Assembly (NCBI GenBank): GCA_043807765.1
Contig: JAZDFQ010000098.1
Span: forward strand, 19,349-83,348
From: Ignavibacteriota bacterium
Lineage (GTDB): Bacteria; Bacteroidota; Ignavibacteria; Ignavibacteriales; Melioribacteraceae
Direction of reading: 5' to 3'
Length of the DNA: 64,000 nt
Under the pieces are notes generated by a model. It made no database searches and had not been told where the DNA came from. It saw only the letters and a program-made list of their open reading frames with translations. The first letter of the stretch is position 1. Every line of letters starts with the position of its first letter. Below are positions 37,532 through 40,090 of this stretch, one piece after another. Position numbers and translations under genes: made by a program.

Positions 37532-38431
37532 TTACATTTTTAAAATATTTTTAATCTTTTTCCATAGTTTATTACGTTTTTTATAGCTCCATAATAATAT
37601 TTCATTCCACTCCCAACCACATGAAGAGCAATAGATGTTTTCGTCAACCGGATTAATATCGAATGTCGTAAAATTATCACAATGAAGACATTGTCTTTCA
37701 CCGGTTATAAGCTTCTTTTGTAAAAATTGTTGAAGAAGATAGTTAACAGGATCAAGCAAATTAAGTATTTGGGTTGTAAGCTCACGCTTTGCAATATCCA
37801 TTTCCAATCCTCTAAATCTGATTACAAATAAATGAATCATTGTCATTTCGTATGAAGTTAGATAACCAATATTGTAAGAATACTTTTTTAAATGTCCATC
37901 TTTAACCAATTCCCACTGGATTGGGGTGTACCCATTCAACGTAAGTTTTCCTAATCCAAGAAAGCATGTTGCCAGGTCTGTAAGGCGCTCATTTTCGAGT
38001 GTATCTGGTAATCGAATATTTTTTTGTTCAAGAAAATAATGTGTCAATTCATGCGCAAGTATTGCTGCCATGATAATTGGTGAATGTTTATTGGTTATGT
38101 TTAATTCAATTCTGCTATGATATGGTCCATTGTGTTTTATTAACCCCGGTGGGATATTATCTTTTGACCAATCGTGAGAAATGTTTGTTAATGGGTTTTC
38201 TATGCCGTTCCACTCTTCTATAACTGGGCAATTTGTCAACCCAATAAATTCCGCAAGCATTTTTATCCCCTCATTTAAAACCTGTGTTGTGCCTTGAGCT
38301 AAGAATCCGTAAAAACCAGGAGTTGGGTCAAAGAAAAAATCCTCTTTCGAACCAAGCTTGAATAAACCAATTTGTGAGTTAAGATATCTGAACTTTGATT
38401 CTATCCAGCTATAGTTTATTCTCTCTGTCAT
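37532..38431 (-). CDS. Hypothetical zinc metallopeptidase-like protein (HExxH, ImmA/IrrE-like) with C-terminal zinc ribbon
   Basis: ILAHELTH followed by ENERLTD; CLHC...CSSC near the C-terminus. Confidence 0.6.
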   Translation of the reverse strand: MTERINYSWIESKFRYLNSQIGLFKLGSKEDFFFDPTPGFYGFLAQGTTQVLNEGIKMLAEFIGLTNCPVIEEWNGIENPLTNISHDWSKDNIPPGLIKHNGPYHSRIELNITNKHSPIIMAAILAHELTHYFLEQKNIRLPDTLENERLTDLATCFLGLGKLTLNGYTPIQWELVKDGHLKKYSYNIGYLTSYEMTMIHLFVIRFRGLEMDIAKRELTTQILNLLDPVNYLLQQFLQKKLITGERQCLHCDNFTTFDINPVDENIYCSSCGWEWNEILLWSYKKRNKLWKKIKNILKM

Positions 38432-38625
38432 TTATCATATCTCCGAAGTACTCGGTTGTGTCTTAAGTAATTCAATCGTAAGCTTTTGCTTTCAATAGGG
38501 AATTGTCCTTTTTAAGCATAAAAATAAGTGTAAAAAGGTTCCCGTGGTCATATTGAATGGAATCCCGTTACTGTTTGCAAATTACTTGTTAGCATTTGCA
38601 ATTTCAAGAAAACAAAACTTGCCGC

Positions 38626-38733
38626 TCTCCCTCCTTACTAAGGAGGGAGACAAAGAGGGAGGTAAAGCTTTAACCTCACCCCCGCACACAGCGCGGGGCA
38701 AGCCCAACCCCTCTCCTTGAAAAAAGGAGAGGG
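38626..38733. repeat. Hairpin plus direct repeat copy 1, downstream of DUF559 gene
   Basis: 12-bp-arm hairpin TCTCCCTCCTTA-C-TAAGGAGGGAGA; 35-bp unit at 38670-38704; CCCTCTCCTT..AAGGAGAGGG hairpin at 38709-38733. Confidence 0.9.
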
Positions 38734-38737
38734 ACTT

Positions 38738-39115
38738 TTAAATTCTTTTTGAAGTAAGCTTTTTAATTGTTTCTTTTATTTTGTTTTCCGCATAATCGCC
38801 ATTATCAACAAACTCTTCGTTTGTAAAACGCAAAAAGGTGATTCCAATACTTTCTAAAAACTTCTGGCGTTCAATGTCATACAGTTTTTGAGCTGGTTCG
38901 TTGTGTATTCCGCCGTCAAGTTCTATCGCTAACTTTAATTCCGGTGAATAGAAATCAATTACATATCTGTCAACGGAAAATTGTCGCCTAAACTTGCAGC
39001 CAAACAAAACTCTGTTTCGCAAAACCATCCACGCAACCTTTTCCGCGTAGGTTTGTTCTTTACGTAATTTTCTGCGTGTATCCTTTAGTTCGGTTTTGTT
39101 GTAGATGCGAGTCAT
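38738..39115 (-). CDS. DUF559 / Vsr-like endonuclease-domain protein
   Basis: RRKLRKEQTYAE..W..LRNR; KFRRQ...YVIDFY; IELDGGIH; D..R..FLES.GI..LRF. Confidence 0.93.
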   Translation of the reverse strand: MTRIYNKTELKDTRRKLRKEQTYAEKVAWMVLRNRVLFGCKFRRQFSVDRYVIDFYSPELKLAIELDGGIHNEPAQKLYDIERQKFLESIGITFLRFTNEEFVDNGDYAENKIKETIKKLTSKRI

Positions 39116-39128
39116 AGTTGTTTTACCG

Positions 39129-39189
39129 TTAACCTCACCCCCGCACACAGCGCGGGGCAAGCCTTACCCTCTCCTTATCAAGGAGAGGG
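39129..39189. repeat. Direct repeat copy 2, upstream of DUF559 gene
   Basis: TTAACCTCACCCCCGCACACAGCGCGGGGCAAGCC identical to 38670-38704, then CCCTCTCCTT-ATC-AAGGAGAGGG. Confidence 0.9.
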
Positions 39190-39196
39190 AATACTA

Positions 39197-40090
39197 TTAT
39201 TTCTTTTTCAACTGCACCAGCAGCGCGCCCGCCGCGGCAATTAACATTCCGGCAAATTCTTTTAGTGTAATTGTTTCGCCAAGAAATACCCACGCAAGAA
39301 TTGCAATTTGTATCAGCATTGTTCCGTTAATGATGGATGATTCCATAGCGGTGAGTGAACGGAGAGATAAATTCCAAAGAGTGAATGCGAGCGCGGTGTT
39401 AATTCCGGCAAGCCAGAGTAAGAATAGAATATTCTTCAATCCAATTGCTGGAAAACCTTGTACAGCAATTCCTACAATAAGAAGAACAATAGAGCCAACG
39501 CCCATGCTTATAATAGTTACGGTTAGCGGATGTAACTTTCCGCCCCGGTTAACCGATCTACCGAGAATTGAAGAGCTTGCGTTTGCGATTACACCGACGG
39601 ACATTACAATCAATCCGGTAATTCTGCTTGCGGATAAATCCGCCGGAAAGAAATAAACCATAACTCCCGCTAAAAATAAAAACGCGCCAAACCATTGGCG
39701 GGAAGAGGGGGTTTCAGAAAGCAGAAATATTCCCATTACGGCAACAACAACCGGAGTAAAGTTGAGCATAAGGCTAACAGTTACAGCCGGAAGAAGAGAG
39801 AGACCGAGAAACTGAGTTCCTTGTGTAAAAGTGTAAAAAATAAAACCAAGAGCAATAAGTTTTTGCCAATCGCGTTTTTCAATTTTTTTAATTTCTTCAA
39901 TCCGTTCTTTTCTTAACGCGAATGGAAGTAAGCAAATAAACGCAATTGTGTAACGCAAGCCCGCGTAGGTAAGTGGTGGAATCTCACCAAGCCCAAGTTT
40001 TATAATTATAAATGATGTAGACCATAAAAAGGTAACAAGTAGCGCAGTAAAGATTGCGGAAGTATGTGAATGAGTTTTGGGTCTATTCAT
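39197..40090 (-). CDS. EamA/DMT-family transporter
   Basis: About 10 TM segments; [10 protein letters not shown]...[10 protein letters not shown]; LGETIT. Confidence 0.9.

Follow-up and report, generated by a model that had tools for sequence, protein, structure and literature searches.

A DUF559 nuclease gene framed by triplex-type hairpin repeats in an Ignavibacteriota genome, and the association of such genes with such motifs across bacterial phyla

We analysed a stretch of 64,000 nucleotides (nt) from the genome of an Ignavibacteriota bacterium (GCA_043807765.1; here G000, 5.02 Mb in 111 contigs, 37% G+C), namely positions 19349-83348 of contig JAZDFQ010000098.1 (C98), which we call the window. 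Within it, a small intact gene of the DUF559 nuclease family lies between two direct copies of a hairpin-bearing repeat that has the design of the triplex-type elements known as BoxC, PIT or TM repeats. A genome of the same genus holds the corresponding site with one repeat copy and without the gene, and at nearly all the loci compared, in three phyla (Ignavibacteria, Bacteroidota and Cyanobacteria), DUF559 genes of the same protein subfamily have motifs of this design beside them. By analogy with RAYT genes and their REPIN repeats, we see about even chances that nuclease and repeat form a partnership in which the gene, together with one repeat copy, may be gained or lost by recombination between copies.

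The repeat-framed gene and its one-copy counterpart

The features of the locus are listed below in coordinates of the window; the DUF559 gene reads on the minus strand, and "gene sense" refers to its direction.

39197-40090, minus strand: gene of an EamA-family transporter (Pfam EamA, E = 2e-41), the upstream neighbour in gene sense
39129-39189, minus strand: TM_A1, the upstream repeat copy, consisting of hairpin hpA1 (39167-39189), TAA, an extra hairpin, a third block and TAA
38738-39115, minus strand: DUF559 nuclease gene, intact, 125 amino acids, ATG at 39115 (Pfam PF04480, E = 1e-30)
38670-38733, minus strand: TM_A2, the downstream repeat copy, consisting of hairpin hpA2 (38709-38733), GTTG, the extra hairpin (38679-38697) and the third block (38673-38682)
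38626-38663, plus strand: TM_B, a triplex-type motif on the opposite strand, found by a strict motif scan and consisting of a hairpin (38626-38650) and the mirror block GAGGGAGGT (38655-38663)
38553-38620, minus strand: promoter-like module facing the downstream gene of 299 amino acids, with TTGAAA-N17-TAATTT and a GGGATTCC...GGGAACC leader hairpin
38705-39163, minus strand: segment of 459 base pairs (bp), comprising the gene and a single repeat copy, by which the locus exceeds the one-copy site of genome G004 (alignment to G004)

The inner part of the repeat is a 35-mer, TTAACCTCACCCCCGCACACAGCGCGGGGCAAGCC, with two exact plus-strand copies 459 bp apart (38670-38704 and 39129-39163). Beside each copy stands a CCCTCTCCTT/AAGGAGAGGG hairpin with a 10-bp stem (chance expectation 0), whose loop measures 5 nt at 38709-38733 and 3 nt at 39167-39189, and a third hairpin, TCTCCCTCCTTA/TAAGGAGGGAGA, occupies 38626-38650. 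An earlier note, made from the letters of the window, had described these repeats and hairpins and the DUF559 gene between them, and all of its coordinates proved right; as it also said, the unit contains no transposase. Folded as single-stranded DNA, the hairpin blocks are much more stable than shuffled sequences (z ~ -6.3). A search of the window at up to three mismatches found no further copy of the 35-mer (0 expected in 100 shuffles), and none exists outside the locus in the whole 5.02-Mb genome, even with eight mismatches allowed.

Read in gene sense, the upstream half of the locus runs from the EamA gene, whose stop codon is followed after 7 nt by hpA1, through TAA, the 35-mer and 13 nt to the ATG of DUF559. 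The downstream half runs from the DUF559 stop codon through 4 nt, hpA2, GTTG, the 35-mer and 19 nt to the third hairpin. TM_A1, which holds copy 1 of the 35-mer (39129-39163) and ends 13 nt before the ATG, contains the extra hairpin CCCCGCGCTGTGTGCGGGG at 39138-39156 and the G-rich third block GGGGTGAGGT at 39132-39141; TM_A2, which begins 4 nt past the stop codon, holds copy 2 (38670-38704). Between hpA1 and hpA2 with their linkers, every loop and linker base differs, next to 35 identical bp. TM_A2 and TM_B together form an inverted doublet, and their third blocks are able to pair with each other.

The encoded protein matches Pfam PF04480 at 106.1 bits (cut-off 20.6), with residues 10-117 aligned to profile positions 3-108 of 109. 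Its other Pfam matches, MTES_1575 and DUF2726, are likewise of the PD-(D/E)XK kind, and its fold class is that of Vsr and the EDxHD nucleases within PD-(D/E)XK. The solved DUF559 protein in the PDB (3HRL) is matched at E = 5e-14 with the single sequence and at E = 9e-28 with the family profile; the catalytic domain of the homing endonuclease I-Bth0305I (3R3P) is matched at E = 3e-4 with the family profile, and the single sequence falls short of it. Four residues in the order D ... E-x-D ... H (D54, E65, D67 and H71) are invariant in 14 aligned relatives, and from this conservation we predict them to be the catalytic positions. Proportions of nonsynonymous (pN) and synonymous (pS) differences are 0.07 and 0.78 relative to the G004 ortholog, and pN ranges from 0.02 to 0.07 against a pS of 0.39 to 0.78 in three ortholog pairs. 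Since pN lies far below pS in all three, the gene is, to judge from these sequences, functional and under purifying selection.

The EamA gene, which shows 66-82% DNA identity across ten relatives, provides a conserved anchor for locating the orthologous site. In G004, a member of the same genus, the orthologous EamA gene on contig C21 (82% DNA identity) is followed by a single TM_A, a loop, TM_B and the promoter-like stretch, and DUF559 is absent at that site. One 47-bp stretch of G004 (L018, 1142-1188) aligns both to positions 39176-39132 and to positions 38718-38673 of the window, so that the window exceeds G004 here by a 459-bp segment made up of the gene and a single repeat copy. The repeat leaves two possible registers for this segment (38670-39128 or 38705-39163). 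The comparison rests on BLAST coordinates, as a global pairwise alignment misplaces the gap owing to the duplication. The TM_A of G004 keeps the extra hairpin, in which a T-A pair replaces the C-G pair of the window, a compensatory change that leaves the stem intact, and the gene-less site retains the TM_A/TM_B inverted doublet. Behind the EamA genes of other congeners lies unrelated DNA. The earlier note had proposed that recombination between the copies would remove the gene as a circle of 459 bp and leave one repeat behind, and a gene-less site with one repeat is what G004 holds; the difference may reflect a gain in G000 or a loss in G004, as both fit the data.

The closest relative of the gene (87% amino acid identity) also belongs to G004, on contig C20, where it is flanked by direct copies of the whole hairpin module. 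Its homology with the window starts at the exact ATG, extends into hpA2 (window 39115-38724) and continues through the downstream module. L054, a metagenome contig with the same locus as G004 C20, carries different variants of the module on the two sides of the gene, whereas in G004 and in L053 the upstream module is 96% identical to the downstream one. Flanking modules have thus been homogenised in L053 and G004, so that perfect identity need not mean recent insertion. Of the two origins that the earlier note had offered for the identity of the 35-mers, recent duplication is therefore unsafe, and homogenisation gains from L053 and L054, which show that gene conversion can produce it. The two contigs also differ by small, nested, GC-rich hairpins that vary between strains (L053, 1870-1900 and 1950-1990; L054, 1180-1245; for example GCCCTTCGGGC to GCCCCGCCATAGGCGGACAGGCCTTCGGGC), and the extra hairpin within the 35-mer of the window is of the same nested kind.

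Three further comparisons were tried and given up. The counterpart of the G004 C20 site in the window's own genome (G000:C89:101960-102950) has a degenerate motif and gene-less flank repeats of the type seen around GxxExxY genes, along with a PIN-domain-like gene and a small antitoxin-like gene (judged by eye); we dropped it as a clean empty site and regard it as a variable spot that exchanges small cassettes. A contig of another relative, G010:C206, was likewise dropped as a clean empty site for the DUF559 locus on C24. Finally, the gene on C24 of G000 and that of locus L037 in G003 had been taken as orthologs at different loci; a synteny search showed that they share their neighbourhood with local indels, and we therefore withdrew the pair as evidence of mobility.

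The repeat design and its pairing with DUF559 genes

The 35-mer, made up of the nested extra hairpin, the third block and TAA, is the inner part of the larger module TM_A, and alignments of module copies, both from G000 and from congeners, extend over ~200 bp. In gene sense, the first part of the module consists of the hairpin CCCTCTCCTT-loop-AAGGAGAGGG, a few bases, GGGTGAGGT, a loop, ACCTCCCTC and TTTG, and the second of the hairpin TCTCCCTCCTT-loop-AAGGAGGGAGA, followed by the promoter-like stretch. The block GGGTGAGGT mirrors the purine arm of its hairpin (T permitted opposite A), and, on the other strand, GAGGGAGGT is the mirror of the purine arm in the third hairpin. TM_A is thus laid out, in gene sense, as pyrimidine arm, loop, purine arm, extra small hairpin and mirror G-rich block. 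The BoxC/PIT/TM consensus is given as CCCTCNCCC N3-6 GGGNGAGGG N3 GGGNGAGGG, with inverted pairs frequent (Holder et al. 2015, PMC4666352). TM_A meets this layout only when the nested hairpin CCCCGCGCTGTGTGCGGGG is allowed in the second loop.

A strict scan of the genome finds ~30 triplex-type motifs, TM_B (38626-38663) among them, and gene-less solo copies of the module are present in G000 and in its relatives. Three copies of the TM_A type lie on contig C85 (20248-20284, 30312-30348 and 30924-30960), each directly after a stop codon (TAAAGT-CCCTCTCC). As the 35-mer, exact or near-exact, is confined to the locus, we take the larger module, and not the 35-mer, as the unit that defines the repeat family. 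The earlier note had credited the gene with its own repeat family: this stands for the module, which is dispersed as solo copies, and fails for the 35-mer, which is no family and belongs to a BoxC/PIT/TM-type design. The note had also named, as the outcome that would count against it, a repeat unique to the locus, other DUF559 genes free of it and no solo copies. The 35-mer is indeed unique; for the module, solo copies were found, and repeats built like it accompany the other DUF559 loci checked.

All three stand-alone DUF559 genes of G000 have a strict motif within 150 bp, in a genome with ~30 motifs in 5 Mb. We extended the comparison to a set of 35 loci, which draws on the flanks of 33 stand-alone genes from 40 relatives of the order and takes in the three G000 loci and one G004 locus, less three that were unusable. 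Flanking direct repeats (E <= 1e-5, 22-191 bp) occur at 20 of these 35 loci, compared with 0/387 random positions and 6/393 random open reading frames of like size. A second set comprises 73 loci whose proteins belong to the same subfamily as that of the window; they come from Ignavibacteria, Bacteroidota and Cyanobacteria and have internal controls shifted by 2.5 kb. Here, a motif lies within 200 bp at 68 of the 73 loci (controls, 2/127) and direct repeats flank the gene at 36 (controls, 0/127). At 27 of the 73, a motif on the same strand begins 43-52 nt before the ATG and ends ~14 nt before it, as at the window, and among the 36 repeat-positive loci the downstream copy begins at the stop codon in 13. 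Repeat lengths range across loci from 22 to 262 bp, and some repeats include coding sequence of the target.

Within the order, protein subfamilies go with different motif sequences: xYNK proteins with CCCTCTCC / GGGTGAGG, MSLN proteins with CCCTTCTCTT / GGGGATGA, and IIPYNP proteins with TCCCCTCC / GGGGTG. Gene and motif also co-occur at the level of genomes. Among 41 genomes, matches to a general motif pattern are present in 19 of the 21 with a stand-alone DUF559 gene and in 6 of the 20 without one (Fisher p = 9e-5, Spearman rho = 0.70, both computed without regard to phylogeny), and a control pattern read backwards has no match in any of the 41.

Long PF04480 matches in relatives, in open frames of 1240-1420 amino acids, turned out to be methionine synthase (metH) genes. 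In the five of them that were aligned, from three genera and two families (G004, G008, G020, G032 and G038), an in-frame DUF559 domain with a motif on each side separates the B12-binding_2 domain from the B12-binding domain, and the motifs are translated as Pro/Ser/Gly-rich linkers. G007 has the same insert on an interrupted contig:

G004:C6:352995-353321: metH DUF559 insert, in the sequence alignment
G008:C10:103695-104021: metH DUF559 insert, in the sequence alignment
G007:C59:12666-12992: metH DUF559 insert
G020:C2:410622-410942: metH DUF559 insert, in the sequence alignment
G032:C51:2608-2928: metH DUF559 insert, in the sequence alignment
G038:C17:26035-26361: metH DUF559 insert, in the sequence alignment

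The empty counterpart in G000 (G000:C38:38250-38582) has a native linker of 14 amino acids and no motif; as both motifs are missing from it, both are part of the insert.

A similar arrangement is found in Escherichia coli K-12 (L052, NC_000913.3, 1351100-1351800). There, the DUF559 gene ycjD ends in a degenerate GC hairpin, beyond which follow a diverged copy of its last ~45 bp and then a TMECO motif (CCCTCGCCCCTCTGGGGAGAGGGTTAGGGTGAGGGG), ~130 bp downstream of ycjD. TMECO copies catalogued in E. coli K-12 number 23 (PMC4666352).

As for the surroundings of the locus, Pfam assigns the neighbours of the DUF559 gene to an EamA transporter and an FRG-domain protein and leaves the 299-amino-acid protein unassigned (four neighbours examined); no methylase gene is among the four. 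A consensus promoter scan upstream of the DUF559 gene gave no match, and our guess is that the gene may be transcribed by read-through from EamA. An Rfam search of 37900-39700 at a permissive threshold returned chance-level matches only, the best being RsaF (26 bits; gathering score 60). The promoter-like module at 38553-38620 is context and lies outside the cassette. It belongs to a family with at least 15 copies in G000 (nhmmer profile; for example C62:1792-1875, C28:26257-26345, C106:897-981 and C89:102982-103067), built of TTGATA, 17 nt, TAAGTT and a GGGGTTCC...GGGGAACC leader hairpin, with very diverse genes downstream; short simple repeats and a CAAATAGAT box come after many of the copies. 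Pfam assigned four of six genes behind such copies (GmrSD_N, RelA_SpoT, Zn_dep_PLPC, and an integrase with Phage_integrase and Phage_int_SAM_4). Going by its motif, we take the integrase on C62 to be an integron integrase.

The genome holds other small genes with flanking repeats besides its three DUF559 genes, namely 11 GxxExxY genes (PDDEXK_3) and 18 four-helix-bundle genes (23S_rRNA_IVP). The flanking repeats are ACGCGGATAACACAGAT-type for the former and short AT-rich simple repeats for the latter. Separately, a repeat of ~150 bp (G000:C24:4685-4845) recurs in at least 22 other places, several of them at contig ends (C39, C40 and C41). With 96-99% identity within G000 and copies at 80-87% in congeners, it looks like an active element resembling miniature inverted-repeat transposable elements (MITEs).

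Possible explanations of the pairing

If nuclease and repeat are partners, the DUF559 enzyme would recognise its cognate motif, folded or as duplex, and nick or cut it. Breaks at motifs would lead to recombination and gene conversion among motif copies, keeping flanking copies alike. By recombining with each other, the flanking copies would reduce the site to a solo motif and set free the gene with one motif as a circle, of 459 bp at the window, and a single crossover at another motif copy would reinsert the unit, giving direct repeats of any shared length. More tentatively, and at odds that we put somewhat below even, DUF559 nucleases in general, E. coli YcjD included, could be the missing partner enzymes of the BoxC/PIT/TM repeats, their cutting of motifs reshaping the copies and carrying the gene, with its motifs, to new sites, in frame within metH for example. 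Each subfamily would then cut its own motif and create, homogenise, spread or delete copies of it. From Ignavibacteria to cyanobacteria and enterobacteria, a PD-(D/E)XK nuclease would sustain a life cycle like that of REPINs and RAYT genes or of solo long terminal repeats.

Several observations weigh against a partnership of nuclease and repeat or do not fit a simple account. The two copies in the window differ in every base of loop and linker and in none of the 35, a pattern that plain duplication does not predict. The co-occurrence statistics ignore phylogeny, and G017, a genome that is 99% complete, has 10 motifs and no gene. G034 is rich in CCCTCTCC motifs yet has MSLN-type genes only, so that the matching of types is loose at the genome-wide level. 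Two of the motif copies on C85 frame an unrelated gene of 188 amino acids that resembles a Mu-type virion morphogenesis gene. The C99 lineage of DUF559 keeps its neighbourhood in three species and thus behaves as a resident gene, and synteny also holds for the C24 lineage. Not all flanking repeats are motifs: in L041 and L042, for example, the repeated stretch is plain local sequence, namely the final 27 codons of the gene upstream. L040 carries a second, decayed gene copy in tandem. In G040, motif and spacer form arrays with a period of 199-206 bp (G040:C1:199152-200181, and G040:C1:3353803-3354941 at locus L044); one unit of the L044 array holds the DUF559 gene, whose last codons and stop lie inside the motif. 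Hairpin-induced replication slippage could yield such local repeats and tandem arrays without a nuclease.

In a rival reading, which we judge unlikely, the enzyme would be a solitary, resident, Vsr-like nuclease for repair or structure processing, acting for example on T:G mismatches or on hairpin and triplex blocks, with an immobile gene and repeats that would be passive by-products of instability. Caulobacter VsrA, also a DUF559 protein, has a chromosomal role of the repair type, tied to a cytosine methylase (PMC12907096), and triplex motifs have been described as causing local instability (PMC4666352). Strong purifying selection, the lineage that is syntenic in three species, the tandem arrays and the duplicated gene ends around motifs all speak for this reading. 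It leaves unexplained, however, the subfamily-specific motif sequences, the fixed spacing between motif and ATG across phyla, and the fact that, in a single genus, both the EamA site and metH exist in filled and in empty form. The missing methylase gene among the four neighbours also speaks against it, although unlinked pairs exist (PMC12907096), so that missing linkage is compatible with a Vsr-like role.

Transposition with a long target duplication seems improbable to us. Here the protein would place nicks on opposite strands where a resident motif begins and ends, allowing a gene segment of 395-424 bp to be inserted, and gap filling would then duplicate 35 to 64 bp of the target. The congener does hold one copy of exactly the duplicated stretch, and repeat lengths of 22-262 bp, sometimes with coding sequence of the target, are what two independent nicks would be expected to give. 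Vsr-type enzymes are nickases, as known from E. coli Vsr. Yet the copies that share 35 bp differ fully in loop and linker, and the two modules around the L054 gene do not duplicate one another. An upstream motif at a set spacing from the ATG characterises the family, and the empty metH lacks both motifs, which makes them insert and not target.

We give similarly little credence to the idea that the motifs are regulatory punctuation, that is, terminator, mRNA-stabiliser or operator modules of adjacent units with no special tie to DUF559. Motif copies do follow directly after the stop codons of unrelated genes, hpA2 with the T-run behind it scores as a terminator on the plus strand, and copies of the promoter-like module next to the locus stand upstream of many genes. 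Against this stands the scarcity of the motifs, ~30 strict ones for thousands of genes, when every stand-alone DUF559 gene of the genome and nearly every locus of the 73-locus set have one, and PIT/TM elements were without promoter or terminator activity in E. coli (PMC4666352). Lastly, an integron-like cassette, which a tyrosine recombinase would move by way of folded hairpin sites, finds no support at this locus and is very improbable: the unit does pair a small open reading frame with a hairpin site and the genome has an integron-integrase-like gene, but that gene lies on another contig (C62), the locus is no array, its short perfect hairpins lack the bulged design of attC sites (checked by eye), and E. 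coli K-12 shows the pairing too, at ycjD.

Relation to known systems and significance

A close parallel to a DUF559-repeat partnership is the system of REP/REPIN repeats with a RAYT gene, as reportedly worked out by Bertels and Rainey and by Nunvar. The RAYT enzyme is an HUH (Y1) tyrosine transposase of the IS200/IS605 kind. In both cases, one enzyme gene lies between copies of a short hairpin repeat whose other copies, without the gene and either single or in inverted doublets, are scattered intergenically; the presence of the repeat goes with that of the gene from genome to genome, and gene subfamilies go with different repeat sequences. The enzyme of the window differs in being a PD-(D/E)XK, Vsr-fold nuclease and not an HUH enzyme, and its repeats combine a hairpin with a mirror purine block, flank the gene as direct copies and number ~10-30 per genome.

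With the BoxC/PIT/TM repeats, the modules share the consensus design, intergenic sites, frequent inverted doublets, loops more variable than stems and an association with local rearrangement (PMC4666352). The sequence families described here are different, some copies have nested extra hairpins, and all are putative triplex formers. The triplex-motif paper gives no partner gene and names neither ycjD nor DUF559 (PMC4666352).

Among nucleases, I-Bth0305I, an EDxHD/Vsr-like homing endonuclease (Taylor et al. 2011, PMC3239194), has a homologous catalytic domain and shares with the DUF559 family its presence or absence at defined sites, in the case of the relatives also inside the conserved metH. 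The window gene, in contrast, has no intron, no intein and no long N-terminal DNA-binding region (125 amino acids in all) and is framed by repeats. The in-frame homing insertion in the methylase of phage ShiLan (PMC11855218) resembles the metH cassettes as a nuclease insert that is read through unspliced, with the differences that it encodes an HNH nuclease, sits in a phage and has no hairpin repeats, and that the copy in the window is intergenic. Caulobacter VsrA is, like the window protein, a stand-alone DUF559-domain protein unlinked to a methylase gene; a repair role is proposed for it, and the available passages report neither flanking repeats nor mobility (PMC12907096). From canonical Vsr, the gene is set apart by having no C5-cytosine methyltransferase gene linked to it among its neighbours.

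Insertion sequences and MITEs differ from the unit, which has direct repeats of 22-262 bp and no transposase; no short target duplication was noticed at the borders inspected, though no systematic search was made. Integron cassettes differ as well, as there is no array here and the only integron-integrase-like gene is on contig C62.

In the literature searched, DUF559 figures as a domain label, as a homing-endonuclease relative or as a Vsr-like repair protein, and we found no paper that links it with triplex-type repeats. This points to a pairing that is undescribed, although both partners are known separately. To it, the window contributes a pair of filled and one-copy sites, subfamily-specific motifs, co-occurrence at the genome level and evidence of conversion between flanking copies. 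To our knowledge, hardly any function has been assigned to the very widespread DUF559 family, and we know of no origin or partner established for the BoxC/PIT/TM repeats since the 1990s. If the specific pairing is real, it would give both of them a testable role, and a second, unrelated enzyme class would join the repeat-plus-enzyme lifestyle of the RAYT/REPIN type. It would also help to explain local genome instability and the presence of unspliced nuclease cassettes inside essential genes.

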